A DNA stretch of 64,000 nucleotides from a virus. The stretch's first letter is position 1; each line of letters starts with the position of its first letter. The notes under the pieces are model-generated. The model saw only the letters and a list, made by a program, of their open reading frames with translations. It was not told the origin of the DNA and searched no databases. The position numbers and the translations under genes are program-made. Of this stretch, positions 36,580 to 62,365 are shown one piece after another. The stretch is taken from the IMG/VR virus record IMGVR_UViG_3300044645_002525, positions 1 through 64,000 of that record. One strand, written 5' to 3'.

Positions 36580-36632
36580 TACGTTCACCCCGCAAGGGGC
36601 GCATGACTAGCTGGTACGGAACGGGACCAGCA
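36580..36632 (+). promoter_or_regulatory. Glutamine-riboswitch-like element (glnA / Downstream-peptide family)
   Basis: CGTTCA-CCCC-GCAA-GGGG-CGCA...CGGAACGG just after an extended -10 (TGcTACACT, 36566-36574) and upstream of a YRGxxY peptide. Confidence 0.7.
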
Positions 36633-42674: not shown

Positions 42675-43214
42675 ATGCTTCCCTCAGAAAAACAGTGCTC
42701 TGCATGCAAGAAATTGCTGCCAGCGGAAATGTTTGCTAAGGATTGCTCCAAAACAACCGGTCTTCGGTCCGCATGTCGGTCTTGTGAATCCAGTCGATAT
42801 TATGTAAATAACACAAGAGAAAAACGGCAATCTTATAGAAGGGCTAATCCAGTAAAAACAATTACAGCTTGGTTGACAAAAGGAGCCATCGCTAGAGCAA
42901 AAGAAAAAAATATTCCTTGCGATATTGATCTTGATTACATCCGTTCAATGGTCGGCAAAAATGCTGAATTCGCATCCCATTGCCCAGCTTTTGGAACAAC
43001 TCTTGACTGGTCGTGCGGAAACAGCTCGAAAAAAGGACCTCGCCCCAACAGTCCTTCCATAGATCGCATTGCCCCAGAGCGTGGCTATGTCAAAGGCAAC
43101 ATTAAAATTATCAGCTTCAGGGCTAATCAAATTAAAAGCGACGCATCTCCTTCAGAGTTAAAACTTGTCGCTGCTTATTGCTCCAAAGCAATAGTCGATA
43201 GCTTGGAATTTTAG
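42675..43214 (+). CDS. Zn-finger + HNH-like endonuclease
   Basis: CSACK...CRSC; CP...PSIDRI.PERGYVKGNI.IIS.RAN.IK. Confidence 0.8.
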   Translation: MLPSEKQCSACKKLLPAEMFAKDCSKTTGLRSACRSCESSRYYVNNTREKRQSYRRANPVKTITAWLTKGAIARAKEKNIPCDIDLDYIRSMVGKNAEFASHCPAFGTTLDWSCGNSSKKGPRPNSPSIDRIAPERGYVKGNIKIISFRANQIKSDASPSELKLVAAYCSKAIVDSLEF

Positions 43215-45681: not shown

Positions 45682-46439
45682 AGCAGCGAACAGTAGGCAA
45701 CAGCTAGCGGCGAACAGTAGGCAGCAGATAGCAGCGAACAATAGACAACAGCTAGCAGCGAACAGTAGGCAGCAGATAATGCCGCGCAGTAGGAGACAAA
45801 CAGCGGCAAACAGTAGGAGAGGCTCAGCGCTGCAATCCTGGCAAGCGGTGCTGTCAGCTACTGGCGCGCGCAGTAGGCATAAGCCACTGCTGCGCAATCC
45901 GCCGCCCATAGGCTCGCAAACTATCGGCAAGGGTGAGCATCACTCAGCGCGATTCAGTGAGCATCACTCAGCGCGATTCAGCGAGCATCACTCAAGGCCG
46001 CCACGGGTAAGGGTGAAGAACTGGCGCGAGAGGGTAAGGGTGAAGAGCTGGCGCGAGAGGGTAAGGGTGAAGAACTGGCGGCCACGAGTAGGCATCACAA
46101 ACCAGCGCGCGCCAGTAGGTATCACAAACCCCGGCGCACCAGTAGGCATCACTCAAGGCCCGCACCAGTAGGCATCACTCAAGGCCCGCACGTGTAAGGG
46201 TCACCTAAGGCCGTCACAGTTAGAGTAGAGAATTCGGCCATGCGGCTTGACGCATAGCCCCATAATGCCTCCAGGCGCATAGCCCCATAATGCCTCTAGA
46301 CGCATACAACGGCAGCGTTATGATGTGATGATGAGATGAAGCAATGCAAAAGAAGCGTAATACGGACCCAGCCTGCCCTGATACGGACCCAGCCTTTTCC
46401 AAAATACGGACCCAGCCTGCCCTGATACAGAGCCAGCCT
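45682..46439. repeat. Non-coding block of six families of 21-27 bp tandem repeats
   Basis: Examples: AGCAGCGAACAGTAGGCAACAGCT x4, GAGCATCACTCAGCGCGATTCAGT x2.5, GGGTAAGGGTGAAGAACTGGCGCGAGA x3, AGTAGGCATCAC... x4, CGCATAGCCCCATAATGCCTC x2, ATACGGACCCAGCC x3-4. Confidence 0.9.
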
Positions 46440-46469
46440 TGCTTGACACAAGACTGGCCTTGCGTGTTT

Positions 46470-47216
46470 TCAAATTTGGTAGCACCAGGAATCATAAGGG
46501 AGGGGCTTTTTCCGAAAATGCCTCATTTCTATGACAACACCACTCGGGGCAACTTGTTCCACTTTGCTATAAGCAATAACTGTATTTTTACCAGCCATCA
46601 ATTTGTCATAAAATTTTTGCAAAGTGATAGAGTTCGATATTTTCATCATTGGCACAACTAAATCGAGGTCTTGATGCTTCCAGTTGCAATACATGCGCAA
46701 TTTTTCAATGCAATTCTTACTCACTCCATATTCTTGGGAAATCTTATAGGCAGATTCTCCGTCGACAAGCCGCAAGCGAATAGATCTCACTTGTTCAGAA
46801 TTGAGCTTAGAGCTGGCCGAGGTATCTCCTATTTGCGTGTTTAGCCCATTTTGCCAGGCATGACGAGTGTTGTCATCGCATGTAATCCATTCAAGATTAT
46901 TTTTGTGATTATTTAGTTTATTTCCGTCTTTGTGGTTGATGCAATACTGTCCGCGATTGGTCCCGATTTCGCCGGCAGGAGGATCAAGCCAAACGGCTGC
47001 AACGAGCTTATGAATATAACGAGGCATTCCAGTCTTCCTGCCTGGAATCATCATCAGGCTTTGAAGATATTTTTTCTGGCCATCGAGATGCTGCGTCAAA
47101 ATGCGATTCTTGAAACAGCTCCAAACCTGCCCCTGCTCATTAATGAAATACTTGCCTGCGTAGCCTGGGATCTCCTTGAACCCTTCGGGCACGCCGCTAT
47201 GATTGCTTGTAGCCAT
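46470..47216 (-). CDS. NUMOD4-HNH homing endonuclease
   Basis: FKEIPGYAGKYFINEQGQV; IHKLVA...INHKDGNKLNNH..NLEW; C-terminal HTH. Confidence 0.9.
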   Translation of the reverse strand: MATSNHSGVPEGFKEIPGYAGKYFINEQGQVWSCFKNRILTQHLDGQKKYLQSLMMIPGRKTGMPRYIHKLVAAVWLDPPAGEIGTNRGQYCINHKDGNKLNNHKNNLEWITCDDNTRHAWQNGLNTQIGDTSASSKLNSEQVRSIRLRLVDGESAYKISQEYGVSKNCIEKLRMYCNWKHQDLDLVVPMMKISNSITLQKFYDKLMAGKNTVIAYSKVEQVAPSGVVIEMRHFRKKPLPYDSWCYQI

Positions 47217-47327
47217 GGCCAAACCCTCTTTGGTAGTGGTTAGAGACGTTGCGGGACTGGCATCCCGCATCGTCTCGCCATGCTAACAAGAAAGCTTGTT
47301 ACACAAGCTTACGGTGTGCAACACCGT

Positions 47328-47746
47328 TTATTCTTCTTTCCAACAGTTCAAAACAGTTCTCCCCTGTTCATCAAAGCGAAAGATGGCCCATTGGTAGTAG
47401 AGCGTGCCAAGGCCAATGGCTTGTTGTTCGCTGATGCCAGTAACAGCCCAACTCAGCTCTTTCCAGCTCCCGTCAGGAGCCATCCCCACCACTTCCTCCA
47501 TTAGGAACATCTGTTGATGTTCCCTTCCTGAACTCTGTTCAGGCATTGAAGCCTTTGAAAGCTGCTGCAGGCGCTTTTGGAGGGAACGATGGAGGGCAAG
47601 ATTGGCAGCGTCGTCTAAAGGCTCTGAGAAGGGGCAGCAGGCGGTGATGACAAACGTGGGGAAGCATGATGGTTGCCAGGACTTGCCTTGAGCATTAACG
47701 ATGATGGTGGAAGCGAAAGCTTGAGCAAGCACGGGAGAAAGTGTCA
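47328..47746 (-). CDS. DUF3293-like protein (start uncertain)
   Basis: VITACCPFS...N....L...W.E.SWAV...A..LG..Y.QWAIF. Confidence 0.65.
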
Positions 47747-47798
47747 AGAGAAAGGGGCCTGGAGGCCCCAATATAAAAAGCAAGAAGCGCTTATTAGT

Positions 47799-50700
47799 TC
47801 ATGAGAATTCTCCAATGATATAGTCATAAGTGCCTTCGCCATGACCAATGCAATGCCAATGATCAATATCGTGTCGACGAAAAGAGCCACTGCGTTTAGT
47901 GACAGTTTTAATAAAATCAACCAAGCTAATTTGCTCGTCATATTCATTTTTTATGCACCATTCTTCACAGAGCTTGTCTCCAATTAGTTGTTGAATGTCC
48001 TGCCAATTACAAACATTCTCTTCTGGCGTCACGTGCAAGCTAAAGCACCAGCCCCATGAGCTTTTGCCAAGGTGAATGGGAGGTTCTTCTTCTTTGCCGC
48101 AATGAAAGCATTTTGGAGCGTGAAGATAATAATTTGTTCCCATGGTCAATCTTCTCCAATAATGCGAAAATCAGGATCGTTGTCCTTTTTAATCCATCGA
48201 CATTGATTTAGTTCAGGAAACACGACGAAAAGCTTATCATGATGATCCTGCTCAACAATGCCCATGGTGAGCTTGGTGCCAATTCGGCTTTTGCCTTTCT
48301 TGCTGATGGCGAGAATGTTAATAGCGTTTTGCATGGTTTCAAGGAGGGGAGGGCGGGGCGCTTTAGGCGCCCCTTGTCAGTTCAAATAGCCTCGGAAGCC
48401 CAACGCTTGACTGTGTGCATGATGTCGTCGCTGGTTTTATTGAAGAGGCGGCTGAGGGTTTCCATCTTGCGGCCCATCATCATCTGACCGTCTTCGTGCT
48501 TAGCAATACAGGCCACGCCTTGGACAAAAAAGCCAGAACCGGGCTTGCCTTCATTGATGAACTTAGCGATGAGAGAAATGAGCTGCTCTTCATCGTGCCT
48601 GATGACGAGGCCGCCAACGTTAACAAGGAATTCCATGGTGGGAAAGCAAAGGGCTGTCGGGATCTCGCCCAACAAGAGAACAATACAGCAAAAGAGCCCC
48701 GTTTCCGGGGCTTGTAACAATGCTTAACAATTAAGCCAGTCGCTCCTGGAGCCTGTTCCACATCCATTGCTCCCGAGTGGAGGGGCGCAGCAACTCATAG
48801 CATTCTCCGTCAACGATGCTGTCGCCAGCGCTATCTACGTGCCCTTCAACATGGAGCTGCCAGATGCCTCTGCAGGCGCCATCAGGCCCGTAGACAGCCA
48901 CTACGTCCTCTCTATCCTCCATTGCTTGGCGAACGTGGAAAATGAGCTGTTGGAGCGTAGCCGCCTGATAGGAGCCTTTGGTGGGAGGGAAATAGTAGCC
49001 GTTGTCTTGGTACGTCTTGATGGTCACCACTGTGGGGAAAGCGAAGGAACGGAAAGGAGCCAGCCAGGAAGAAGCTCTTGAGCAGAAAGGATGGCCGTAG
49101 CTTGATCCCTGGCCAGTAGTTGAAGCGTACGGCGTTGCCCTTGTTTATGAGCAACGATGGTGAAGGGAATCATTCTGGCAGTTGCTCCTCTTCAAGCTCT
49201 TGTTCATGGACAAGTTGCCTGAGTTGGTCTATTGCCGCTTGAATGACATAGCCTCTGGTGATAGAGCTTTCATCTAGCAGTTCTTCTAGCGCTCTAATTT
49301 CATCACAGAGTTCTTCCGTGGAAGAGAATGTGCATGCAGCGTAAGGCACGCCATATTCATCTTCTGAGACGAAGCTAACGGGAAAAGTCATGATTCAGGA
49401 GAAATGATGGTCCAAGAAAGGTAGTCTTCAGAAGGGCGTTCTATGCGAATGAAGCCGCGCTCTTCTAATTTTGCCATTGCTTTCAAATGGTCAGCAAGTC
49501 TGCTGCCTTGCAATGGTGATTTTGGTACGCTGCATGGCACATTGCCATACTTTTTCTTGTGAGCTAAATAATGCAAATAGATGTTGCGTTGATTAATGGA
49601 AAGAGCAAATTGTGAGTTGTTCACAAATGCTCCTCGATTAAATCTGCTAGCTCTTCAAAGCTTGCTCCTTCATCATTCCAGCTACTAACGTAATGGCCAG
49701 CAAGGTAAGGATTGGGCGCATCTAGCCCTGCCCATTGCTGAACGGAAAGAGGAAGAATGCCTCCTTCAGTTTCAAAGCTGTAGCAACCACCAACGTCATG
49801 GTGCCATTTCTGGTTTGTCTCTTGAATGTAGAGATTGGTGAGCACTCCTAGGCAGCAGAATTTGCCATTGTTGCAGAGGCTTTCACGACCTTGTTGATAC
49901 TCTCCAGAGCGAAGAGCTTGAATCCAGGATTGCTTGATGGAGGCGTTCATGATCAGCCGTTAATGCAAGAGTTGAAGAATTGTTCTGCTTCCCACTTGTG
50001 ATCAAAGAGACCGTAGGAAGTGGTGTGAAGCTGGAATTCAGTTATGCGCTCCCATCCATAGGCTTCCCACTTTATGGAGCCATCAGCGCACAGATAAGAT
50101 TGCACGCCATAGCCACTGTGCTGGGCTTGACGGTCAGCTTCAAGCTTGGCCAAATACGGATCTTCTCTGTGGCCTTCGTAAGGACGGTGCATGGCTTGAT
50201 TGCGAACAAAGGAACAATAGAAGAGAAGCGGGGCGTTTCCGCCCCTTTGTTGCAATGCTTAACAGAAGGCCGTGCGACCGTTGGAATAGGCCCACCATTG
50301 CTTGGTGCCTTCGCTGGCTTCCTGCTCCCATGCTGCCCACTTCTCAGGCACAGGCTCGGAAACAATGCGAGTGCCAGCAGGCACCTTGATGGGGCCAGAG
50401 AGCGTGCCGATGGTCCATTGATCCATCACGGGACCATTGATATACCAGCTCTGGCAAACGTGGAGCAGGCCAATCAACTCAAGCTCGCGAGGATTGGCGG
50501 CACCGGCTCTTTGCTGAGTGGGGAAAGGCTCGTGCCAGTTGGGCACGGTGATAGTGATTTTGATTCGCTCAAGCCCTTCGAACTTAGTCCAGTAGCCAGG
50601 ACCGGTGAGCTGCTCAACGGAGTGGTTGATGATTGCCATGGTTGGTTCCTTAACGAGGGGGCGTCGCCGCCCATGCAGAGAACAATACAGCACCATGCCC

Positions 50701-51223
50701 CGCTCAACGAGGCTTGTTACAAACCTTCATAAAGGCATTCCAAACGAAAAGGCCGGAGGCGGCCCATACGGAGCTTGTCTTCGCTGACGAATTGCTGACT
50801 ATTGGTTTTGGTGTTTTTGATTTTATGCAGGCCAGTTTCAGGGTATATCTTCACCACTGTGTATTCGCCTCTCCATTGTTTGAAGCCTGAATCGTAGAGA
50901 TCGACGAGGGTTCCAATGGGGAAAGGCATGAAAAAGGGGCCTAATGGCCCCTAGTCTAGAAATCAGCGTTGCTGGTCACAAATGCCAGCGAGCATTTCGC
51001 CAACGTAAATACTGGCATCACGAAGCTTGTCTAGGGCTTCATCACGCTCAGCGCGAGCCTTGTAATAAGCGCCAGGGTCCTGCGGATAGTAATCGCGCCC
51101 ATTGAGAGTGGCTGCAGCAAGTGCTTCCATTGCCTTTTCGATGGCATCGTAAGCAGCGGCGTATTCATCTCGCAGTGTGGTGAAGCCGGTGCCGTTGAGG
51201 TGGATGGTGGGGATGGTTGCCAT
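47799..51223 (-). CDS. Run of about 11 small hypothetical genes (47799-48143, 48146-48334, 48382-48636, 48731-49030, 49170-49391, 49388-49624, 49621-49950, 49953-50192, 50259-50639, 50717-50929, 50963-51223)
   Basis: Co-oriented, tightly packed ORFs separated by promoter/terminator cassettes; includes the common phage families MGTNYY...HLGKSS.GW and W..ALRSGEYQQG...CCLGV. Confidence 0.7.
48680..48731 (-). promoter_or_regulatory. Promoter cassette: HLR1-like direct repeat + hairpin + TATTGT -10
   Basis: + strand ACAATA (48680-85); hairpin GCCCCG-TTTC-CGGGGC; GTAACAAT-gc-TTAACAAT (48714-31). Confidence 0.7.
50214..50266 (-). promoter_or_regulatory. Promoter cassette, copy 2
   Basis: ACAATA (50214-19); GGGGCG-TTTC-CGCCCC; GTTGCAAT-gc-TTAACAGA (50249-66). 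Confidence 0.7.
50682..50733 (-). promoter_or_regulatory. Promoter cassette, copy 3
   Basis: ACAATA (50682-87); imperfect hairpin; GTTACAAA-cc-TTCATAAA (50716-33). Confidence 0.65.
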
Positions 51224-51254
51224 TTGGAGAGGCATCGCTGCCGAACACTTAGGA

Positions 51255-51306
51255 ACAATACAGAAGAAAGGCCCCGGAAACGGGGCCTGTTACAAAGCTT
51301 TACAGA
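51255..51306 (-). promoter_or_regulatory. Promoter cassette, copy 4
   Basis: ACAATA (51255-60); AGGCCCCG-GAAA-CGGGGCCT; GTTACAAA-gc-TTTACAGA (51289-306). Confidence 0.75.
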
Positions 51307-51307
51307 G

Positions 51308-51679
51308 CTAGTTGGTGACGTTGGCGCAGAGAGCAGCCACCATATTTGCTTCTCCTGGTTTTGCTCCTTTTGCCACTGGACTACGCCAGCCCTGCCATTG
51401 TTTGTCTTGGAGCACGTTCACCTTCAGAAGCGGGCAACTAACGGCAATTGACACTGGCGTGTGGGCGCTTTCATCTTTGCATTGGCGCGTGGTGGTCCTC
51501 ACGCCATCAGAAGAAAGCTTCCAAGAGCCCCAGGCGTAGTGGCAGTCGCCGAATTTGCGCTCAGTGGCGGTTTGCCCTTCTTTGATGATGCGCTCCAGGA
51601 GCGCTTCTTCCTTGGAGAGAGCTTGTTGCTGCACGGGAGGCAGTTCGGGCAGTGCAGTTGCGAGAAGGAGGGAAAGCAT
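51308..51679 (-). CDS. Putative exported Cys-containing protein
   Basis: Hydrophobic N-terminus and four Cys. Confidence 0.55.
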   Translation of the reverse strand: MLSLLLATALPELPPVQQQALSKEEALLERIIKEGQTATERKFGDCHYAWGSWKLSSDGVRTTTRQCKDESAHTPVSIAVSCPLLKVNVLQDKQWQGWRSPVAKGAKPGEANMVAALCANVTN

Positions 51680-51690
51680 GGTTTTGGAGA

Positions 51691-51882
51691 TCAGGAGGAA
51701 AGGGCGCGCTTAATAAAGCTTTCAACGTTTCTCAAAAAGCGCTTATCTAAAGTGCTTTTGCTTGTACAAAATATCTTGCCAGAAGGATGCTTGAAGACAT
51801 AGTGCTTTTTCTCACGCTGGAGAATAAAGCCATACTTTGCGGCCAAGGCCATTACTGCTCTTCTATTATCTTTTGTTGCCAT
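51691..51882 (-). CDS. HicA-like (dsRBD-fold) protein
   Basis: YGFILQREKKHYVFKHPSG...SKS..D.R..RN pattern. Confidence 0.6.
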   Translation of the reverse strand: MATKDNRRAVMALAAKYGFILQREKKHYVFKHPSGKIFCTSKSTLDKRFLRNVESFIKRALSS

Positions 51883-52088
51883 TAGAGCAGTTTCCAGATG
51901 TCATCTTGCAAAGCATTTGCAAGCGTCAAGAGCAAGTCTTTCTTTTCTTTATGAGCGGGCTTATTAGCGCGGGAAAGAATAAAAGAGCGAGCAGAAGAGC
52001 GATCATCGGCGCTGTAATCTTGCCACTTGTGGCGAACGTTGTTGGAAACCATTTTTGCAATGGCTTGTTGAGTGCGAGAGAGGGGCAT
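51882..52088 (-). CDS. Hypothetical protein
   Basis: 68-aa ORF abutting neighbours. Confidence 0.55.
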   Translation of the reverse strand: MPLSRTQQAIAKMVSNNVRHKWQDYSADDRSSARSFILSRANKPAHKEKKDLLLTLANALQDDIWKLL

Positions 52089-52092
52089 TGTT

Positions 52093-52371
52093 TCAGAAGA
52101 CGAGGGTTTGTCCGTTAGCTTTAATGCTTGTCACGCGCTCACAATCAAACGAACGCCAAGCACCTTCCCCTTCTTTACGAGCAATGGAGAAATCACGACA
52201 ACGGACAATGTTGGGCTTCTTCACTGCCGTGCCTGTTCCTTTGATTTCCTTGGTATCCCAAGGATTAAAGCAAAGCTTGCGCACGGAACCATTAGCCTTG
52301 ATGAATTCCACTGAAACAATGCTGTGACCAGCATTGAAGATGAACTGTTTAATGCGGGAGGTTTTGTCCAT
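52093..52371 (-). CDS. WYL-like / Sm-SH3 beta-barrel protein
   Basis: VEFIKANGSVR...D...AWRSF motif. Confidence 0.65.
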   Translation of the reverse strand: MDKTSRIKQFIFNAGHSIVSVEFIKANGSVRKLCFNPWDTKEIKGTGTAVKKPNIVRCRDFSIARKEGEGAWRSFDCERVTSIKANGQTLVF

Positions 52372-52450
52372 GAGGAACCTGTCGCCAGGGGGGTATGGAG
52401 GGAAGAAAGAAAGGCTCCCGCTTAGGAAGCCTCGTCCGTCATCCAGGGAG

Positions 52451-52480
52451 AGTGTAGAGGCTACTGAGCTGAGTTGTCAA
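52451..52480 (-). promoter_or_regulatory. Sigma70-type promoter
   Basis: TTGACA-18 nt-TACACT on the minus strand. Confidence 0.7.
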
Positions 52481-52649
52481 GCTTGGCCACGGGAAAGCCA
52501 TTAGCAATGCGGCAGTAGCGCTCAGGATGGTGCTGGAGGCATTTGTCAAGCCCTGCCTTGTTAGGCATTGCTTCAGGGCCTGCGACAATGGCAAAAATGC
52601 CAAGTCCAAACACCAAGCTCACCACGAGAAATGAAGCTGCGTCTTTCAT
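52461..52649 (-). CDS. Small membrane-anchored protein
   Basis: N-terminal TM helix; C-x8-C in the soluble part. Confidence 0.55.
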   Translation of the reverse strand: MKDAASFLVVSLVFGLGIFAIVAGPEAMPNKAGLDKCLQHHPERYCRIANGFPVAKLDNSAQ

Positions 52650-52996
52650 AGTCTTGAGATGCAGATGGACGCTTCGCCTTGAGAAGGGGAAGCAATACGA
52701 GCGAAGCTGCCGTAGGACAAGTCCAAGATGCGGCCTCCGTAGTATGGACCGCGATCAACGACTGTCACTGTCACTGACTTTCCATTGTTACGGTTCTTCA
52801 CACGCAGTCGCGTGCCAAATGGAAGCCATGGATGGGCAGCAGTCATGGAATAGGCATTGAACGTGGAACCACTGGCCGTGCGTTGACCGTGATAGCCATC
52901 CGAGACGCCATAGTGCGAGGCGTAGCCACATTCGAGAGCTGCTTGCGCCGGGATGGGACAGAGCAGCAGAAGGGAAAGAAAAAGACGTTTCATCAA
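52646..52996 (-). CDS. rlpA: RlpA-like lytic transglycosylase (DPBB domain) with signal peptide
   Basis: GYASHYG...TASG..FN..MTAAH.WLPFGT...V.V.DRGPY..GRILDLS. Confidence 0.9.
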   Translation of the reverse strand: MMKRLFLSLLLLCPIPAQAALECGYASHYGVSDGYHGQRTASGSTFNAYSMTAAHPWLPFGTRLRVKNRNNGKSVTVTVVDRGPYYGGRILDLSYGSFARIASPSQGEASICISRL

Positions 52997-53106
52997 TTAG
53001 TACGAAAGAACTAGCGAGGGCCATGCCGTCTCCGACAAGGCAATGCCCATTGTGCCATGAAACGAGCAGCTAGTGCCGAGCTGTTGCAAGGTGTTATGAT
53101 TCTGAA

Positions 53107-53279
53107 GCACTCGGTCCTGGCGGCTTAATTGCTGCTCTTGTCTTCGGGCGAGCCGTGAGGGTGGACGCCTCTGGTGATGCGGGCGAAGATCGAATGATCT
53201 AGCCAAGGAGTTTTGCATGGTCTCCTGCGAGGCGCATCATCTCCCTTGTATCTTCAGGGAAAGGGGCATCGGAGGGTGC
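53107..53279 (+). ncRNA. Putative ~170-nt structured ncRNA
   Basis: TGtTATGAT -10 at 53092-53100; closing stem GCACTC/GGGTGC; internal TGATGCG/CGCATCA; terminator GGGGCC-TTAT-GGCCCC-TTTT at about 53288-53311; no convincing ORF. Confidence 0.5.
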
Positions 53280-53341
53280 GAAGAGAGGGGGCCTTATGGC
53301 CCCTTTTCTTTTGCCTATGCTTAAAGGGCTAGGAGATTGTT

Positions 53342-53509
53342 ATGAAGCTTTCTGCGGAGCAAGAAAGAGAAAGACTTAAGCGATGGATGGCAAGTGGGGA
53401 AGTTTACGACCCTCGTAACGAAGATGATTTTGATACTTGGAACGTAGGAATGGAGCCTCTTCCTGGTGATCGCTCTTGGGCAAAGAAAAAGCCCCTTACG
53501 GGGCTTTAG
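53342..53509 (+). CDS. 55-aa hypothetical protein (below ORF-track cutoff)
   Basis: AGGAG SD upstream; MKLSAEQERERLKRW...; ends in a terminator-like hairpin. Confidence 0.6.
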   Translation: MKLSAEQERERLKRWMASGEVYDPRNEDDFDTWNVGMEPLPGDRSWAKKKPLTGL

Positions 53510-53550
53510 CAGGAATCCTGATAAATGGCGTTTATCAGAAATCCTGATAA

Positions 53551-56226
53551 TTAAGCTTCAAGCTCATCAGCGATGGCAAGAACGTGCGGGATGTACACCC
53601 AGTGACCTTCGCTGTCATCTGGCACGCAATGTTTAGCAACAGCACGCAGGGCAGCAGCAAGACATCCTTTTCCCGTGTGGCTAGTGCGGAAAGCATCTAA
53701 TACGGCTTGAGTGGTGGGTGAGAATTCAGACATACGAGTTGATCGGACTAGGAGGCTTTGATCAGCTCAGCAAAGCGGCGCAGCTTATCCATCTGGCCTT
53801 GCTCGTAGCCACCCCACTCGTCGCTGACATCTCTGGTGGGATCCCACGGGGCTATCAAACTCCAGCAAGATGGAAAGCAAAGACCGGCTTCGCGTGCCGC
53901 TTGGATAATCTGTTGGTCGGTCATTAGTGATGTTGACTAAGAGGGCAGGAATTCGAGAACGCGGAGCAGTGTCGCAGCATCTCCATCATTGATGCAATCA
54001 CCTTCGACAAGGCATTCGATGATCTCTTGCGCTTCATCCTTCAAGCTCGTCGGCTTGGGGCGACGGGCATTGATCAGTTCAAAATCAATACCAATGTGGG
54101 CGGTGCCTTTAAGCCACTCACAGCACGCCTCCAGCTCCTGATCAGCTCCAGCTTGGAACGCTTCATAGAGCACAACATCGACGTTTTGCTCTTCGTCAAT
54201 AATGAGGCTTTCCCACTTTCTGAGTAAATGATCGGGCGGGTAGATGTTGTTAGTCATCAGGAAGAGAAGTGTGTAGAAATTGGCAACTTGGCTAGATGGA
54301 AGTGACGAGACGATAGCGCCTGAGGATTTCCTCCTGTTCCTTTTCTCGCCAGTATTGAAGCCTGCGCTCAAGCTTTGCCGTGGCAAGCTGCATTACGCTT
54401 CGCTTGTCATGATCCCAATCAAGCAATGGATCAGAAGCTTTGGCCAAAGAGTTGTTCGTAGGCATGAGAGAAAGCGCGAAATTTCCTAAGATGATGATCC
54501 CGATCTTGCGCCAACAATTCCGCGAGATCTTTAATGAGCTGATCGCCATTGTCATTATCAAAGTATTCAAAAATAGCGTCTGTAAGTGTGTCTTTGGGCG
54601 TGCTCACAGCTTGCCTCCCTTAATGGCGTTGTTGTAGTTCATCAGATATTCTTCAAAATCAGCGCCAGTGGGAGCTTCTTTACAAAGCTCTTCATGATTC
54701 TCCTTGAGCATGTCAAGGCTCACCACGAAAGCACAGCGAATGCGATCAAGAGCCAATTGCTGCACAAGGTTAGGCTCCTCATCAATAGCCTTTTCAATGG
54801 TGCAAATGTATTCCTGCAGATCTGCCATGGCAAAGGAGCGCGTTACCACGGGCTTACCGAAGTGCATGGCAAGCTCTCCATCCTTAAAAGCAGACACGGG
54901 ATGATTGGGCAGAAGATGATTAAAGGCAACAGTCACGATGGAAAAGCGGAGGGCTAGCGACGTTCTCCGTCGCATGTGCATAGTGTGCCAGTAAAAAGGC
55001 CCCCATCAAGGGGGCCGTCGTCGTCCTGTAACATTTGTTTACAAAGCTTGCTTTGCTGGTTTTCGCAAGGCCTGCGTGGCAATGCTGAGATTTTTGGTGA
55101 TGGGCAATGGCTTGTCTCGCCACTTAATAGCAATGGCATGGCAAGTGCCCACTGGCATTAGCTCAGCGTGCCTGTAAGCCCTGTCCAGGAGAATTTGATA
55201 CGCCTGGCGCTTTGGCTTGCTCATTGGCCCCTCAGGCTCTTCAATGTTAGTGCGAGCAAAATCAGCCAATTCAGTGATGTCGTCTAGCTCGTTGGTAGCA
55301 ATAACAAAATGCCTGCCACGTTGTTGCACTTTGCGCCATGCAGGATGAATGGGAGGATTTTCCATGGCAAGAGCCTGTGCTTCTTCCTGAAGCTGAGGCG
55401 GAATGCAAATGTGAACCATGCGAGGGAGAGAATGCTCTAGCAAAGAGAGCTGGTAGTCCATGGTTAGGCGAAACGAAATTGTCCGAAGTGGAAGGAGTGG
55501 GAACCAATGGTGAGGGAGCATTCACCAAAGCCGTCATACATTGTGCCAAGAAGAAAGCTATTCCTCCATTGGAAACAGAATTTTCCTAGGCGAAGATGAC
55601 CAGTGGCATCAGTGCAATGGAAAGAAGCAGTCACAGCTTTGGATCTTCAGGAAGGGGAGGGATTTCCTCAATCATTGCAATTCTTACGTCAGGACGCATT
55701 GCAAGCATAAAATGTTCAGCTTGTTTTGCTGAAATCGCCCCGAGGGCGATTTTCTTTCCTTCATAAGTGGTGATTAAATAAGTGCGACAAGAAGCTGCCA
55801 TCACCGAAGTTCCTCCTCAAGTTCTTCCAAAATGTGCTGACTGAGCGTTTGCTCAAGCATGGGCTTCCATCCGCCGTCGCCTCCAATGCTATTGATTTCA
55901 GCGAGGAGATGGAGAGCATCGGCAATGCGTGTGGCATCCATCAAACAGCTACAGGCCATGCTGGGCTCCTCGCTAATCAACTCTTCAAACATGCCAATGT
56001 GCAGTTCAAACCATTTTCCTAGTGCGAACAGGGCAATCTGACGGTAGGTTTCATCACCATACTTTTGAAGCATGGTTTCAATGGAAGCGGCAAGCTTTGG
56101 CGGAATGCCTACTGTGCCATGGTCCTGAAGCCCAGGAGAAATGGCCTTGCTGATGGCTTCTCGCTTGCCTTCCTTGGCTGCGATGGCTTGACGCAGGAAC
56201 TGATCGACGGAATCAAACTGGTTCAA
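53551..56226 (-). CDS. Run of small hypothetical genes (e.g. 53551-53733, 53748-53924, 53937-54257, 54604-54829, 55039-55461, 55801-56226)
   Basis: Co-oriented ORFs; includes common small phage families (SPTTQAVLDA...AAALRA; GADQELEACCEWL; IIQAAREAG...RFAELI). Confidence 0.6.
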
Positions 56227-56272
56227 TGCAAGGGAAGCATTTCGCTAATGATGGCCCCTCATGGGGCCATTG

Positions 56273-57028
56273 TCAATAATCGTCTGCATTAATTGTTTGT
56301 AAAGGCATGGTCTCAGGAAGTGGCTCGTTTTCCGGCTCAGCATCAAAGCTGATGGTCTCAGCAGACGCAAGAAGAGAATTGCCCCTGCGTTCTTCAGTAG
56401 CCTTGGCTTCCTTTTCCTTTTCAATGGTGGAGGAAAGGTCTTTTAGGAATGTCCTGTAGGACGTGTCTTGGTTCTCTACGGGCTTGATTTCGTTGAGGCC
56501 AAGGAGCTTTGCTTGCTCCACCAAGGAATTTTTGGCCACGTTGAGAAAGGACGCATCGCCAGCGCTTTCTTCTATCTTCACCATTTCCTTGCTGCCATCG
56601 TCACCGCCGTCCATGATGGTGACTGTCTTCTTGCGTTTACTGGTTTCAAAGCTTGCTAATGCAAGCTCCTTGAGATCCATCTGCTCCTTCAGGAGACGCG
56701 CCCTGTGCGTGTCTTGATTCTTGAGAATCTCTTGCGTGTATAGGTCTCTGTTGAAATGCCTGTCTCCATTGACTGTTTCTTTGCTTAGCTTTAGTACATT
56801 GGCAATCTGACGATTGCTCATCTTTGCTGCTAATAATTCTTGCACCATCCATCGCCTTACGCCAAGCATCTCTTTGGTATAAACACCCGCTCCATGTTTG
56901 CCGCCATGTGACTTATGTTCTCGGATGGCTTCATACTGAGAAATGGGCACGCCTGCTTTTGTCAAAGCTTTTCGTGCATAAGCCTCTTCTTCTTCAGGCG
57001 TGGCAAATTCAATTTCCGGACGAGGCAT
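56273..57028 (-). CDS. HTH protein, candidate terminase small subunit
   Basis: MSNRQIANVLKLSKETVNGD HTH, helical middle, GD..FL......EQAKLLGL motif. Confidence 0.55.
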   Translation of the reverse strand: MPRPEIEFATPEEEEAYARKALTKAGVPISQYEAIREHKSHGGKHGAGVYTKEMLGVRRWMVQELLAAKMSNRQIANVLKLSKETVNGDRHFNRDLYTQEILKNQDTHRARLLKEQMDLKELALASFETSKRKKTVTIMDGGDDGSKEMVKIEESAGDASFLNVAKNSLVEQAKLLGLNEIKPVENQDTSYRTFLKDLSSTIEKEKEAKATEERRGNSLLASAETISFDAEPENEPLPETMPLQTINADDY

Positions 57029-57034
57029 TGTTTA

Positions 57035-57713
57035 CTATTTTGCTCCTCGCATTGTATCGCCCTTTCCATGGAGGGTACGAACAAACAATTCAGTGAAACG
57101 TTCCATGCGTGAGGCCACTACAGTGGCCGGACCATCATCAATTGCTTTCTTCAATACGCAAAGCTCTTCCCATTCAGCAGTAGATAAATCTTCATCGTTA
57201 GCAGACAATGGCGAAATAATGTTCATAGCTAAGCAAAGGGGCGCACCAAGCGCCCCGTTTCCCCACAATCAATGATACTGCCAGAAGGCTTTTTCTAACA
57301 AATCATCAAGCTCATTAAGCTTTTTAGGGCAATATTTTCGGACGAATTCCTCCATCTCCTTATGAAGGCTATCAACGATTTCTGCATAGGCAGCATCTAG
57401 CCCGCGACTGTCCATTTCTTGCTCAGCTTCACGCTCGTAAGCAAGAGCCATGCAATCCTTGGGATTGGTGCAAAATTCACGCATCTGCTTGCTCCGCTGT
57501 GGCAAAACCACTGTCAATCAATTGCTGAATTTCATGCAGACTAGAACGCCAATGACGCTCTCCATTGTTATCACGGGCTCCATAGAGAGTTCGGGCCGCT
57601 GGTTGCGGCCCTTTGCTTGGCTTTGAAAAACCGTGATGCACGATAGGCAGAATTTCGGCCCCATTGTGCTCCAACAAAGGAAGCTTATCTACTGGACTAG
57701 GTGGAAGAAGCAT
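57035..57713 (-). CDS. Three small hypothetical genes (57035-57226, 57269-57484, 57477-57713)
   Basis: Co-oriented ORFs. Confidence 0.55.
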
Positions 57714-57791
57714 TGCGCTGGAAGATTCCTTTGCAATGTTAAGCGTGTTTTGTTCAGTTGAAGGTTTCCTTTGCCTTTTGTCTGAACGTTA

Positions 57792-57917
57792 CGCCCTTGG
57801 GGGCTCCACTCTGGCTAGAGCGGCATTGCGGAGGTTTGAGGCATCGTTTGGCTTTGATCGTTGTTGATAGGTGATCTTGGCCTTATGAATGAACGCTCCG
57901 CCCTTGGGGGCTACGCT
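57792..57917 (-). repeat. Dispersed hairpin element, copy B
   Basis: Reverse complement reads AGCGTAGCCCCCAAGGGCGGAGCGT...AAGGCCAA...GAGCCCCCAAGGGCG. Confidence 0.75.
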
Positions 57918-58210
57918 TGCTCTGGCTGGCCATGCCCGTGAGTTAAGGAGCCATCGCTGATGGGCTTAGCGACACGTGTCTAGTCCAGTGGTGAGGGTAA
58001 AGGGAGTTAGAGGCAAAATCAAGCAGGCTTGTGCAGCTTCTTTCCCTGGCACAAGGCAGACGAGAATGGCGCTAACCGGCAGCATGATGGCACTGCCTCT
58101 CCTTTTCTCCATGGACAAGGAAGCCATCACTGAGTGGCTGATCAAGCACAAGTACAGCGATCGCCGCCTCATTCCACAGCTCCATTGCCCGCTCTGTCGC
58201 CCACTGAACT

Positions 58211-58369
58211 ATGAACGACGAATTCAAGGACTACAAAATCGTCAAGCTGCCACGCAATGGTCCGAAGCCTGGTCAGAGCACTAACGCTTGGCTTTATGGC
58301 AAAGGCAAAGAAGAAGAAGAATTCCGGAAATTAATAGACGCTCAAAGCTTCAAAGGCAAGCACAAGTAG
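58211..58369 (+). CDS. 52-aa hypothetical protein
   Basis: MNDEFKDYKIVKLPRNGPKPGQ...; followed by a bidirectional terminator-like hairpin at about 58377-58399. Confidence 0.5.
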   Translation: MNDEFKDYKIVKLPRNGPKPGQSTNAWLYGKGKEEEEFRKLIDAQSFKGKHK

Positions 58370-58482
58370 GTAAAACAAAGGGGCCTAGTGGCCCCTTTCT
58401 TCTTGGTCTATACTGAAGAAAGCTGCCCGCTACGGTAGGCAGCGGGGAGGCTATGTTAGAGCCTCCCTCCTATTGTGAAGCG

Positions 58483-60537
58483 TCAGAAGAAGTCGTGATC
58501 CTCTTCCCTTTCGGGAAGATTTTCATTTGTCACCATGGAAACAGGCTCTTGTGGTGGAGCTTCTTCCCGAGCGGGAATTTCAAAATCTGCTTCTTTTTCA
58601 CTTTCAGTGAAATTTGGTTCTTCCTGAAAATCAAGCTCAGGCTCAACATAGTCCCACGAATGGTAAAGACGCTCGCGTTCTCCATTGGGACCAACAACAA
58701 AGCTACTGCTAATCAAACCCTGCCGCCTTGCCACTTCCAGCATTTTGCCAGTGGAGCTGGTTTCAAAGCTTCCAGACAATGCTGCCACTTGCTGTTTAGA
58801 GAAGCGTTCATTTTGACGCATCTCAACTACATTCACCACTTGATTCAGCTCTTCTAGGGATCCGCCTTGTGGTCCTGCATAATGCCAGCCATAAGTGAGG
58901 TTGTCTCGCTTGAGCACATGCTTACCAGTGAGGCCACTCCTACTCTTCATCCATTCGAGCGTAAATTCATTTGGATCGTAGCTTTCAGAACGAGTGAGCT
59001 TTACCACTTCACTAACGTTATCAACGAAGCTAGTGGAATCACGCAGTCCTCCATTTTTGTTGAGATGGTGGAGGATGAGAATGGAACAGCGATAAGTGTT
59101 GGCAAGATCACGCAGGCCATAAATCACATCGCCTGCATTGCTCTTTACCATATCCACGTCCATACCAGCAAGGCAGGCAGTGAGGCTATCAATCACGATA
59201 AACAGAGGACGTTCCTTTCTCACGTAGTCCTCAAGCTGTTTCATATGGGCGAAGCGCCAAGTCTCCCAGAATTCAATGGTGCCAGGCTCCAGTGGAGTGT
59301 CTTGATAGCCAATAACGGAAAGCTTTTCGCTTGTGTCGATGAGAGGTTCGTCGCTTTGGCAAACTAAAGTTTTGCCTTTCATGCAACGGCGCCCGCTCCA
59401 TTTTGTGCCAAGACCAATATGAAGAGCCCAGTTGTAAGCCACCGTCGATTTGCCAGTGCCGCCTCCAGCAGCAAGCAGCGTCACGCTTCCCAAGGGAATG
59501 ATGCCAGCAATCAGCCATTCACGGGCTTTATCGGCATTAGCAATGGAAAGAGCGTCAATACTTTCAAGCTCTTCCCTTCCATAGATGCGATCTTTAGCTT
59601 CTGCAATAATCTTGTCAACATTCTGCTGGCTCATCTTTACGCCACGCTGCTCTAGCCAATTGCTGGTTTCATAAGCAATGCGAGAGTCATTGGCATAGAG
59701 GCCAACAAAGTTTTCAATGGTGGAAATAATCTCCTCATATGCAGGCTTGCCATCTTGCCCTTGATGCCTGCTTTTTGAAACAATGGAGGAAAGAAGGTCG
59801 TCTTTAGTGGCACCTTCTTCAATGTAGTCGCCTAAGTCATAGCCATTGCCAGGGGGAAGATTGTCCCATTCCCATGAACGAGGATCTGCATAAAGCCAGC
59901 TTGCTCCAGGATTATCACTGGCAATTTCTGCCATGAATGCAACGCCTTGCTCGTCGCGATCAGGACAAAGTACAAGCTTTCTATTGCGGAATAAGCTTGT
60001 GTAGTCACCATTTGTACGGTATTGTTTGCTGCCTCCAAGGAAAGTAATACAAGGAAGATCAAGCGCCCAAACTGATTCGCAGGTGAGTTCTCCTTCAACA
60101 ATAAAAATGGGAAGACCAGTTTCTTCACTCTTCGCCACTGCTTCTTCGTAGCGATAGGGCAACACATTGGCCTTGATTTCCTTGAGCTTGGTTTTATGTC
60201 CGTTCTCGCTTTTGTCAATAGTAGGAAAGTCTTGCCAAATTTTTTTGGAGCCCGAAGTGTCGTCACGATGGACGATAACCACTTCCTTTCCATGGTTATT
60301 TTTGTAGACAAACGTATAGTTGCCCGCATCACGAGGCGGCTTCTCCCATCTGGTGAGAGGGGCTAGGGCATCACGAATTTCGGCCCGGTGCGCAGGGCTG
60401 GTGTCATGCCAGCAGTTGTATGCCTCTGTGTTTTTGTTGATTGTGAAATCGTTACCGCCGCATGCAGGACAGTGGTATTTCCCTGGCTCATTGCTTGGCT
60501 CCAGTTGCTCAAGGTGGTCAAGGATGGAAAAGGCCAT
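58483..60537 (-). CDS. Primase-helicase (Zn finger + TOPRIM + RecA-like AAA helicase)
   Basis: CPAC...CWH; IVEGE; CPDRD; Walker A GGGTGKS; IVIDSL; ILHH.NK. Confidence 0.9.
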   Translation of the reverse strand: MAFSILDHLEQLEPSNEPGKYHCPACGGNDFTINKNTEAYNCWHDTSPAHRAEIRDALAPLTRWEKPPRDAGNYTFVYKNNHGKEVVIVHRDDTSGSKKIWQDFPTIDKSENGHKTKLKEIKANVLPYRYEEAVAKSEETGLPIFIVEGELTCESVWALDLPCITFLGGSKQYRTNGDYTSLFRNRKLVLCPDRDEQGVAFMAEIASDNPGASWLYADPRSWEWDNLPPGNGYDLGDYIEEGATKDDLLSSIVSKSRHQGQDGKPAYEEIISTIENFVGLYANDSRIAYETSNWLEQRGVKMSQQNVDKIIAEAKDRIYGREELESIDALSIANADKAREWLIAGIIPLGSVTLLAAGGGTGKSTVAYNWALHIGLGTKWSGRRCMKGKTLVCQSDEPLIDTSEKLSVIGYQDTPLEPGTIEFWETWRFAHMKQLEDYVRKERPLFIVIDSLTACLAGMDVDMVKSNAGDVIYGLRDLANTYRCSILILHHLNKNGGLRDSTSFVDNVSEVVKLTRSESYDPNEFTLEWMKSRSGLTGKHVLKRDNLTYGWHYAGPQGGSLEELNQVVNVVEMRQNERFSKQQVAALSGSFETSSTGKMLEVARRQGLISSSFVVGPNGERERLYHSWDYVEPELDFQEEPNFTESEKEADFEIPAREEAPPQEPVSMVTNENLPEREEDHDFF

Positions 60538-60558
60538 GGGGAGGAGTGAGATGAGGGT

Positions 60559-60656
60559 GTTCTAGCAGCAAAATCCCGCTCCCGCAGGGCATTAACAATT
60601 CTTAATGCTGCTTTTGGCTTTTTGAGCATTGACGGGCTGGCTATGACGGCTATGCT
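60559..60656. promoter_or_regulatory. Divergent promoter region
   Basis: Leftward TGcTAGAAC; rightward TTGACG-16-TATGCT (60629-60656); degenerate direct repeat TTAACAAT-tc-TTAATGCT (60592-609) between them. Confidence 0.55.
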
Positions 60657-60746
60657 GGCCATGTCCCTCGCAAGGCAAAACCATGGAGCTTTGGCTGGCC
60701 GCCATTATCGGCTTCAGCATTGGCTATCTTCTCGGCCCTTTGTTTT

Positions 60747-60989
60747 ATGACCGTTGACCACGGCGAGCCCAAGAAAAGCCGCCACTTCACTCTCACTGAC
60801 ACCGCCTACGCTCATCTCAAGGATATTGCCCATGAAGCACGATTGAGCCTTAGTGAGACAGTGGAGCGTCTTATTCGCACCACTTCTCCATGGGAGGGGA
60901 ACACAGTTCTTTGTGACGGTGCTTTCTCTTTAGTTGAAGACCATTCCATCGTTTCCGAAATTGAGGACTATGAAGGTTTCAGAGCTTAA
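60747..60989 (+). CDS. Ribbon-helix-helix DNA-binding protein
   Basis: KKSRHFTLTDTAYAHLKDIA...SLSETVERLIR. Confidence 0.7.
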   Translation: MTVDHGEPKKSRHFTLTDTAYAHLKDIAHEARLSLSETVERLIRTTSPWEGNTVLCDGAFSLVEDHSIVSEIEDYEGFRA

Positions 60990-61430
60990 GCTCGCTTGTG
61001 AAGACTTCCTTCTTGAGTATGCCGACACAGAAGTGAAGCTGCTTTGGGAAGAGGGCGTACTCACGGAAAACTACGATCCTGATTGCTTGGAAGAGCCTAC
61101 TGATGTGAGAGCCATCAATGACTGGCCGCTTCCTGGCGACAGCTTGATTGTTAAGAGCGAAATGCCTTCCAAGATGTTTGTCATTATGTACGGCGAATAT
61201 CAAGCGGCCTTCGGCTACAAAGCAGTGGCGCACTTGGGATGATGGAAACGCCTAATCTCACCACGTCTGAGCTTTATGCTCGCATGAAGCAAATGGACCA
61301 TGATGTGCTTCATTGTCTTGATTGCTTTCTTTCCGATACTGGTGTGGCCGTGGTTGGCCTGAATCTTTCGTTTGACGAAGAAAGCGAAGAGTATCTTCTT
61401 GATTGGCATTTCGCTTTTCTTGAAGAATGA
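60970..61430 (+). CDS. Two acidic hypothetical proteins (60970-61242; 61239-61430)
   Basis: Translationally coupled ORFs. Confidence 0.6.
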
Positions 61431-62365
61431 ACCACACCTTTCTCACTTATTCCCCCTCCGACTTTTCCAGCATGGAAGATCCCGCAAAACAAGCAATGAT
61501 CGAACGCTCTCTGGGCATGTTTACGCCGCTTGAAATCAGCGCCGAAGCTTTCCGCGCTGCTTACGACACTCCAGACATTGGCCCTCACATCGAGAAGGAC
61601 TACAAAGGTCTTTCCTATCTGTCTTGGCCGTTTGCCTTCCGCTACCTGAAGGAACATTTCCCGACGCTGTTCGTAGCGTTTGAAGAGAAGACCATTGGCT
61701 GGCCTGTATTTGGCGAGCCTGGTGCCTTCATCCTTCGTCCCTATCTGACAGATGGCGTAAGGCGCACTCCTGCGCTGGTGTTTCCCGTGATGGACAGGAA
61801 GCACAATTCCATTCAGCAGCTCGACGGTCGTGCAATCAGCGACAACATCCAACGTGCCAGTGTCAAAGCCATTGCTACGTTCACGGGCCTTGGTCTTCGG
61901 CTCTATGCCGGAGAGGACATCCCTAAGGAAGAAGCGCCAAAGCTGCAGCAGGACACGCTCAAGACGCCTGCACGCACGAAGACTGCCCCTAAGGAAAGCG
62001 CTGCTGCTGCTGGAAGCGAGGGGCCTGTTGCCACCGCCGATACAGGGTCCGCTGAACCTTTCGATGCAAAAGCAGTTCTTACAGCAGTGTGCAAAGCCAA
62101 TCCTTTGAACTATGCCGACGAAAAAGCTGCTATGGCTGCAGGCAAAGCTGCTCTTGAAAGCATTGGACTTGCTCGCGCCACGGAAGTCAAAACCTGGCAA
62201 GCCTTCGGAAACGTCGTCGCAGCAATGATGACGCTATGGGCAAAGGAGCAGGAGATCATCATCAGCAAAGCTGAGATGACAGAAGAAATCAACATTGTCC
62301 GTGGTCTTGCTACCACTGACGAAGTGATTGAAGGCATGAAAGCTTTCGTCGCAAAAAAGCAGTAG
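61427..62365 (+). CDS. Sak/Rad52-like single-strand annealing protein (DUF1071-like)
   Basis: GLSYLSW..A; PVMD.K.N; I...IQRA.VKAIA..TGLGLRLYAGEDIP. Confidence 0.85.
   Translation: MNHTFLTYSPSDFSSMEDPAKQAMIERSLGMFTPLEISAEAFRAAYDTPDIGPHIEKDYKGLSYLSWPFAFRYLKEHFPTLFVAFEEKTIGWPVFGEPGAFILRPYLTDGVRRTPALVFPVMDRKHNSIQQLDGRAISDNIQRASVKAIATFTGLGLRLYAGEDIPKEEAPKLQQDTLKTPARTKTAPKESAAAAGSEGPVATADTGSAEPFDAKAVLTAVCKANPLNYADEKAAMAAGKAALESIGLARATEVKTWQAFGNVVAAMMTLWAKEQEIIISKAEMTEEINIVRGLATTDEVIEGMKAFVAKKQ

Follow-up and report, generated by a model that had tools for sequence, protein, structure and literature searches.

The stretch of DNA analysed here, called the window, corresponds to positions 1 to 64,000 of the viral record IMGVR_UViG_3300044645_002525, that is to the first 64 kb of a 77,138-bp record that has direct terminal repeats. 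From ~61 kb down to 46 kb, small genes are carried by the minus strand, and the majority of them have no Pfam or PHROG family. Four repeated cassettes, numbered 1 to 4, were found in this region at 48.68, 50.21, 50.68 and 51.26 kb, where an earlier note on this DNA had located them; their reading direction is that of the minus strand, on which the local small genes are encoded. The note had proposed that they are promoters carrying sites of the HLR1 type, the direct repeat recognised by the cyanobacterial response regulator RpaB.

Anatomy of the cassettes

On the minus strand, the cassettes are built alike: the end of the upstream gene is followed by a 17-18-bp box (TGTWAAGSWTTGYWACA), then by a GC hairpin and its C/T-rich tail, the hexamer TATTGT, a leader and an ATG. 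The TATTGT hexamer, claimed to be a -10 box, and the GC hairpin claimed for the -35/spacer region are present in all four cases. The claimed position of the repeat was also borne out: an 18-mer matching HLR1 ends 28 nucleotides before TATTGT and therefore spans ~-58 to -41 if TATTGT occupies positions -12 to -7. HLR1 was scored as the consensus KTTACAWW-N2-KTTACAWW, with mismatches counted over its 16 defined positions. In the window, one mismatch was counted in cassette 4 and in a further site at 55028, two in cassettes 1 and 3, and three in cassette 2. The GC hairpins of the four cassettes range from -10.8 to -15.6 kcal/mol. The ATG of a small open reading frame (ORF) lies 21-43 nucleotides beyond TATTGT. 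The ORFans that the cassettes would drive are 79-126 amino acids long, and their products have no match in Pfam or PHROG. The elements of the four cassettes are as follows.

51289..51306, minus strand: HLR1-like 8-2-8 direct repeat of cassette 4; HLR1 on the plus strand, antisense to the gene, 1 mismatch
51269..51288, minus strand: GC hairpin of cassette 4, -15.6 kcal/mol, TTCTTCT tail; terminator-like for the upstream gene 51308..51679, fills the -35/spacer region
51255..51260, minus strand: TATTGT of cassette 4, predicted -10 hexamer
51231..51242, minus strand: 5' leader hairpin of cassette 4, GCGA loop
50963..51223, minus strand: 86-amino-acid ORFan 3' of cassette 4, no Pfam/PHROG match
50716..50733, minus strand: HLR1-like repeat of cassette 3, 2 mismatches
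50696..50713, minus strand: weaker hairpin of cassette 3, -10.8 kcal/mol, without T-rich tail
50682..50687, minus strand: TATTGT of cassette 3
50657..50674, minus strand: 5' leader hairpin of cassette 3, GCGA loop
50259..50639, minus strand: 126-amino-acid ORFan 3' of cassette 3; stop codon within the cassette 2 box
50249..50266, minus strand: HLR1-like repeat of cassette 2, 3 mismatches
50230..50245, minus strand: GC hairpin of cassette 2, GAAA loop, -14.0 kcal/mol
50214..50219, minus strand: TATTGT of cassette 2, without leader hairpin; 21 nucleotides to the ATG of a 79-amino-acid ORFan (49953..50192)
48714..48731, minus strand: HLR1-like repeat of cassette 1, 2 mismatches, both at octamer position 3
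48695..48712, minus strand: GC hairpin of cassette 1, GAAA loop, -14.3 kcal/mol, CTTTTGCT tail
48680..48685, minus strand: TATTGT of cassette 1
48654..48675, minus strand: 5' leader hairpin of cassette 1, 6-nucleotide loop containing GAGA
48382..48636, minus strand: 84-amino-acid ORFan 3' of cassette 1

The earlier note had also placed a terminator within each promoter. A terminator consensus scan upheld this for cassettes 1, 2 and 4 and not for cassette 3, whose hairpin is without a T-rich tail. The form of a Rho-independent terminator, a GC-rich stem-loop and then a T-rich run, was listed for the same three cassettes and for a variant at 55.0 kb (see below). Just upstream of cassette 3, a separate terminator-like hairpin lies at 50750-50765.

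Some further observations concern the surroundings of these elements. A 70-amino-acid ORF (50717-50929, minus strand) crosses the hairpin at 50750-50765 and ends in the cassette 3 box; its 3' end, or its reality, is doubtful. Over positions 46000-62000 of the minus strand, terminator-like hairpins are over-represented (44 as compared to 18.2 expected), and at many gene boundaries there is a hairpin but neither box nor TATTGT (among others 50935-50952, 47754-47769, 57238-57256 and 53488-53507). A match to CTGTATTGTT at 7191 on the plus strand was discarded as a chance occurrence, being located within a 1283-amino-acid gene and devoid of a box.

Conservation across the phage family

The exact pattern consisting of the box, 25-31 nucleotides and TATTGT was found in 35 viral contigs, many of them 68-77 kb long. 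One of the exact-pattern viral matches, L035, was rejected as an AT-rich chance match. A sequence profile built from the exact-pattern matches gave 134 matches in 35 loci; a single phage has up to 8 of them, and they are concentrated among the small genes. In a set of 77 unique pairs of box and hexamer, for which distances of 24-31 nucleotides were permitted, the spacer between repeat and TATTGT is 26-29 nucleotides long, and 27-28 nucleotides in 92% of the cases. Ninety percent of the spacers fold at -8 kcal/mol or better, as compared to 17% of shuffled spacers. This folding is retained across 55 distinct hairpin sequences, in which GAAA, GCAA and UUCG loops are frequent; therefore the structure is kept while the sequence drifts. 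Such stable tetraloops indicate selection at the RNA level. Across the family, the 8-nucleotide tail of the hairpin has a mean T fraction of 0.46 and a C+T fraction of 0.73. Judged by this conservation, the cassette is a trait of the family and not a local accident.

The box compared with HLR1

The comparison with a shuffled background that the earlier note had proposed was run with the HLR1 consensus. At up to two mismatches, 4 matches were obtained as compared to 1.09 expected, and none of the 100 shuffles (0/100) reached 4. These are the only matches at this level in the whole 77-kb genome; they correspond to cassettes 1, 3 and 4 and to the 55028 site, all in one orientation. The description of the box as an HLR1-type direct repeat also stood up at the level of the family, with agreement at 14 of the 16 defined positions. 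For each of the 73 unique boxes, the best HLR1 match reads in the antisense direction to the gene, always in the same register. Twelve unique copies are perfect matches, 8 have one mismatch and 31 have two. In the promoter-distal half-site, which was unconstrained by the selection of copies, 7 of the 8 positions follow HLR1.

With TATTGT at -12 to -7, the centre of the box is located at ~-49.5 with respect to the predicted start. According to the published rule, RpaB activates when the centre of its site lies between -66 and -45, with a peak at -51, and represses when the site overlaps the start, the site being on either strand (PMC6525291, PMC13421787). Given the predicted start, the box centre of the cassettes would fall within this activation zone. 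As far as the sequence can tell, the cassettes have an HLR1-type site upstream, at the distance expected of an activator. The NtcA (GTA-N8-TAC), Pho-box and LexA-type patterns were also compared with the box by eye and did not fit it. The pattern of the Pho box is PyTTAAPyPyW at an 11-bp period (PMC10976474).

Core promoter and leader hairpin

At 16-18 nucleotides from the hexamer, the best match to a TTGACA -35 hexamer did not exceed 4/6 in any of the 73 copies. TATTGT is followed by a pyrimidine-rich run of six bases and then, in 62 of the 73 copies, by a purine at the seventh. A leader hairpin, absent from the earlier note, was also observed. It consists of a perfect 4-7-bp stem with a GCGA or GAGA loop and is present in 56 of the 73 copies (77%), as compared to 0.53/73 in shuffles. 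It begins 6-12 nucleotides (mode 8) past TATTGT, and its stems represent 30 distinct sequences. Its location at the extreme 5' end of the predicted transcript fits a start ~7 nucleotides past TATTGT.

5'-terminal stem-loops stabilise bacterial mRNAs, and lambdoid nut sites carry boxB hairpins. As in these cases, the cassettes have a hairpin with a GNRA-type loop near the transcript 5' end, of which the structure and not the stem sequence is conserved. Based on this likeness, the leader hairpin probably stabilises the mRNA, and a boxB-like role is possible. With the lambdoid nut site, which associates boxA, boxB and an N-type protein, the cassettes are compared by the hairpin alone and are not classed as a member.

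The phage and its likely host

Synechococcus phage S-CBS4, a siphovirus, is a distant relative of the phage studied here (73% identity over 9% of an 8-kb query). The genes surrounding those of a Sak-type annealing protein and an AAA_25/Toprim-like protein come in the same order in both phages, the S-CBS4 counterpart of the AAA_25/Toprim-like protein being a RecA-family ATPase. At window positions 36490-36631 on the plus strand, a tRNA-Leu (anticodon taa) is directly followed by a Glutamine-II riboswitch aptamer (RF01704, 41.4 bits), a class known from cyanobacteria and their phages. The sequencing runs listed as containing window positions 47000-53000 are all from lake-water DNA (24/24), with no RNA run among them. 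Because of the kinship with S-CBS4, the Glutamine-II riboswitch and this occurrence restricted to lake water, the host is likely a freshwater picocyanobacterium. RpaB has been reported to be conserved across cyanobacteria (PMC6525291).

The small-gene block is bordered by an HNH endonuclease gene (window positions 46470-47270, minus strand; PHROG 59, E 1.5e-35). A second gene, endonuclease VII/HNH-like, is located at 42675-43214 on the plus strand.

Variant and degenerate copies

The earlier note had listed related repeats at two other places. The one at 55028-55045 is real; it has a single mismatch to HLR1 and is part of a variant cassette.

55028..55045, minus strand: HLR1-like repeat of the variant cassette, 1 mismatch; 10 nucleotides (one helical turn) further from the hairpin
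54998-55016, minus strand: terminator hairpin of the variant cassette, TTTTT tail
54980-54985, minus strand: -10-like CACTAT of the variant cassette, in place of TATTGT; box 40 nucleotides away
54957-54973, minus strand: leader hairpin of the variant cassette, GAGAA loop

In locus L012, the counterpart of this site (L012:3363) is made of the box, a real TTGACC -35 element, 18 nucleotides and a -10 element, with no hairpin, and the distance from box to -10 is again 27-28 nucleotides. In one S-CBS4 unit, an HLR1 match with 2 mismatches lies 39 nucleotides from TATAGT. With the predicted start, the box centre is at ~-60 in the 55028 and S-CBS4 variants; the shift is of about one helical turn and the centre would still be within the activation zone. 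Judging from L012:3363 and from the S-CBS4 and 55028 variants, box and -10 stay coupled without the hairpin.

S-CBS4 (NC_016766) carries two cassette-like units, at L005:700-760 and 1835-1886, each composed of a hairpin, TGTATAGTT and a leader hairpin with a GCGA loop. In the related viral contig L040 (positions 1-330, minus strand), three tandem units are found ~57 nucleotides apart, with a box of the TGTAAAGAATTGTGACA type, 23 nucleotides to TATGGT and no hairpin. Ahead of them, a partly palindromic word of 25 nucleotides is present twice. These tandem units may represent a strong cluster of early promoters, with an operator.

The other repeat, at 60592-60609, did not hold up. It has 5 mismatches to HLR1, and matches with up to three mismatches are already at the level expected by chance (19 as compared to 12.7), so that it is unsupported as a site. 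Its layout alone is cassette-like, with a box, a hairpin, a T-run and 26 nucleotides to TAGAAC.

60592..60609, minus strand: degenerate box-like repeat, upstream of the gene of the 684-amino-acid AAA_25/Toprim-like protein

Occurrence of the box in cyanobacterial genomes

In 401 sampled cyanobacterial genomes, the box word was found 46 times, as compared to 5 times for the reversed control (~9-fold). In 401 genomes of a control phylum, the corresponding counts were 3 and 5. Among 30 host box sites that were fetched, 29 are intergenic. Their neighbours include a D1/D2 reaction-centre gene, the gene of a rubrerythrin-domain protein, possibly the chlorophyll-pathway cyclase, and many unrelated genes. 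The box is kept intergenic in cyanobacteria; therefore a host factor is favoured as its binder, although this does not prove that the factor is RpaB.

The full cassette pattern occurs in 9 genome contigs, of which 4 are cyanobacterial (two loci, in two species each) and 1 is a phage contig that was misbinned. Stenomitos (L042/L044) and Nostoc (L043/L049) carry the full phage pattern (box, 25-28 nucleotides, TATTGT) in long intergenic regions of the chromosome. At these loci, no nearby downstream ORF and no Rfam match were found; they may be promoters of unannotated small RNAs.

Rearrangements between cassettes

In locus L029, the 3' end of the gene upstream of cassette 4 is joined to the gene downstream of cassette 3. 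The joint is inside the shared -10 block, and the two intervening genes are missing. In L012, the modules of the window are present in permuted order. As seen from these arrangements, the cassette doubles as a recombination joint.

A proposed mechanism and its alternatives

Starting from what is observed, namely the anatomy, conservation and spacing of the cassettes, the resemblance of the box to HLR1, the cyanobacterial enrichment of its word and the joint of the indel, we propose that the cassettes are compact and portable terminator/promoter/leader units that would drive the small accessory genes of an S-CBS4-related freshwater cyanosiphophage. Each unit would begin with the HLR1-type direct repeat at ~-58 to -41. 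The GC hairpin, with its stable tetraloop and C/T-rich tail, would terminate the transcripts of the preceding gene and would fill the place of the -35 element. The invariant TATTGT would then act as the -10 element, with the purine located 7 nucleotides downstream as the likely start. In most copies, the GCGA/GAGA-loop hairpin would form the 5' end of the mRNA and probably stabilise it. As a -35 element is absent, initiation should depend on a protein bound to the repeat, for which the phosphorylated host response regulator RpaB, acting as it does at photosystem I promoters, would be the most likely candidate. No OmpR-type DNA-binding domain (Trans_reg_C, PF00486) was found in the 77-kb phage genome. 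If RpaB is the activator, the cassette genes would be expressed under low or moderate light, and less so after a shift to high light or strong reduction; this light gating is transposed from the RpaB literature and is not an observation. The repeated units would also serve as sites of homologous recombination adding, deleting and reordering the intervening genes. Promoter and terminator activity, the start site, the binding of RpaB and the dependence on light are inferred. Activation of the cassettes by RpaB has, in our estimation, about an even chance of being correct, and the whole explanation, in which terminator, promoter, leader, RpaB-dependent activation and recombination are combined, a chance just short of even.

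Several facts weigh against this explanation. The invariance of TATTGT is unusually high for a -10 box of the sigma-70 type. The most variable position of the box is the third of each octamer: HLR1 has T there, and the phage copies have T, A and C about equally often in both half-sites; in the window, only cassette 4 has two TTACA cores. TAACA-type cores occur among the Synechocystis HLR1 sites listed in Table 1 of PMC6331805, most of these listed sites being predictions. The 2-nucleotide spacer, free in HLR1, is GC in most copies of the family, which could reflect common descent or a different binder. Just some of the host box sites adjoin photosynthesis genes. Moreover, where the box word occurs in hosts, the 27-28-nucleotide distance to a -10 element is not kept, and for this reason the idea that the whole architecture was copied from a host promoter was dropped. 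A study of PhoB also found the prediction of response-regulator boxes in phage genomes from sequence only to be unreliable (PMC10976474). Finally, the phage itself encodes a candidate binder, a conserved 251-amino-acid helix-turn-helix protein (56273..57028, minus strand) with weak GerE and HTH_38 matches.

If such a phage-encoded protein bound the box, it would switch the genes on after early expression, and the likeness to HLR1 would be a convergence or a coincidence. The gene of the 251-amino-acid protein is located upstream of the cassettes with the same direction of transcription. Neighbours of the protein in a protein atlas carry Sigma70_r4 or HTH_23 domains, and its 303 homologues in related viral or metagenomic DNA bear source labels of transposase, Trp repressor or response regulator; it belongs to PHROG 645, dubiously labelled 'Rnase E'. 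In its right half, TGTWACA, the box is palindromic, as would suit a dimer, and the conserved GC spacer and the free position 3 are departures from HLR1. However, the Pfam matches of the protein are below threshold, no PDB sequence match was obtained, and its AlphaFold2 model (pLDDT 70.5) had no Foldseek match at E <= 0.001, the weak rows being MarR-type regulators and small terminases. The half-sites are conserved as a 10-bp direct repeat and not as an inverted one, the 12 perfect copies match HLR1 in full, and the ~9-fold enriched, intergenic box word is found in cyanobacterial chromosomes that are without such a phage. In addition, S-CBS4 has a homologue of the protein (gp086) and yet only two box-like sites in 12.5 kb. 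The 251-amino-acid protein is retained as a candidate phage regulator, and we consider it unlikely that the box is bound by a phage-encoded protein.

Other explanations question either the regulator or the function of the unit. The box could be an AT-rich UP-like element contacted by the alpha subunit of RNA polymerase, as in the PeSL elements considered below, or it could bind another OmpR-family regulator such as RpaA, in both cases without light/redox gating by RpaB. Indeed, the box has ~65-70% A+T in a genome of 48-50% G+C and its location at ~-41 to -58 is the classic UP position, while some promoters are reportedly targets of both RpaA and RpaB, either shared or in competition (PMC13421787). 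An UP element would however not need an invariant G and C at fixed places (TGT..AAG....TGT.ACA), and both versions are opposed by the agreement of the unforced half-site with HLR1 at 7/8 positions and by an enrichment that is specific to cyanobacteria; the misfit of the Pho-box and NtcA patterns also speaks against other regulators. This explanation appears distinctly unlikely. We regard as highly improbable that the blocks are kept mainly for recombination homology or for RNA-level signals such as 3'-end or processing sites, TATTGT not being a -10 element and the genes being read through from an upstream promoter. The cassette-to-cassette indels and permutations, the RNA-level selection suggested by the stable tetraloops, and the invariance of TATTGT and its flanks, as would result from gene conversion, fit such a role, but the spacing from box to hexamer is fixed whereas that from hexamer to ATG varies between 21 and 43 nucleotides. 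A hexamer of the TAnnnT form is also present, with a pyrimidine-rich discriminator, a purine as +1 and a hairpin from ~+2, the same distance from box to -10 is found in L012 with a real TTGACC -35 element and no hairpin, and a terminator before each gene would silence it unless a promoter follows. It is extremely unlikely that RpaB binds the boxes mainly to the effect of being titrated by the replicating phage DNA, with de-repression of the high-light genes of the host and lowered expression of photosystem I. There are several good sites per genome and RpaB represses hli and psbA-type genes by occupancy (PMC13421787), but 4-8 sites per genome are few, many of them are sub-optimal, and a decoy would need neither a fixed distance to a -10 element nor a leader at each site.

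Relation to known systems and implications

A close parallel to the terminator/promoter/leader units proposed here is found in the PeSLs of T4-like phages (RB49/phi1, T4/PST, KVP40/nt-1; PMC2839356, PMC4122927), repeated intergenic elements of ~60-100 bp in which a promoter is joined to a GC stem-loop serving as terminator or attenuator. Both promoter and terminator activity have been demonstrated for PeSLs, whose stem-loop lies inside an early promoter (PMC2839356, PMC4122927). In PeSLs and cassettes alike, the stem-loop is placed within the promoter, small ORFans of a variable region are flanked, and recombination between copies leads to insertion, deletion and reordering of the intervening genes. 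PeSLs have full sigma-70 consensus -35 and -10 elements, an AT-rich upstream region and a Shine-Dalgarno sequence, whereas the cassettes depart from the sigma-70 pattern in having no -35 element and carry an HLR1-type repeat, TATTGT and a GNRA-capped leader hairpin. PeSLs are found in T4-like myoviruses, the cassettes in S-CBS4-like cyanobacterial phages. The cassettes would thereby extend the PeSL idea, in which regulatory units are also recombination joints, from T4-like coliphages and vibriophages to cyanobacterial siphoviruses, an activator site replacing the -35 element.

With the activating HLR1 sites of host promoters (photosystem I, phycobilisome and ATP synthase promoters of Synechocystis 6803 and S. 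elongatus 7942; PMC6525291, PMC13421787), the cassette box has in common an 18-bp pair of KTTACAWW octamers with a 2-nucleotide gap, found on either strand, and a centre ~50 nucleotides upstream of the start, which is predicted in the case of the cassettes. Host HLR1 sites are at photosynthesis genes, whereas the cassette box is part of a repeated, mobile phage unit placed before ORFans. Unlike the host sites, the cassettes have a terminator hairpin between site and -10, a degenerate position 3 and a gap conserved as GC. Occurrences of HLR1 in cyanophage genomes are already mentioned in the introduction of PMC6525291, which cites a 2018 review. Our literature search found no paper in which siphoviruses were described as carrying HLR1, at activating distance, in repeated terminator/promoter cassettes.

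For PhoB, it is established that cyanophage promoters carry sites of a host response regulator (PMC10976474). The Pho boxes of P-SSM2 pstS and of S-PM2d genes resemble the cassette boxes in that a cyanophage promoter carries a direct-repeat site for a host regulator of the OmpR family, so that phage genes follow an environmental signal of the host. The Pho boxes respond to phosphate via PhoB/PhoR, with binding shown by gel shift together with RNA-seq, whereas the signal of the cassettes would be light/redox. Unlike the cassette boxes, the Pho-box sites are not in a repeated mobile cassette.

The relative S-CBS4, which is grown on Synechococcus CB0101, is a possible experimental system for cassette-like units. 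In ~90 bp, the unit associates a terminator, a regulated promoter and a stabilising leader, which makes it a candidate synthetic-biology part for cyanobacteria. Cyanophage infection is known to be light-dependent. If RpaB drives the cassettes, the phage would borrow the promoter logic of host photosystem I for its own accessory genes. We suggest, tentatively and as a doubtful further step, that this phage family has a plug-in module, made of an RpaB site, a terminator, a -10 element and a leader hairpin, which travels with each shuffled accessory gene, so that new ORFans would at once be insulated from neighbouring genes and tied to the photosynthetic redox state of the host. If true, such a module would provide a molecular basis for light-dependent infection.

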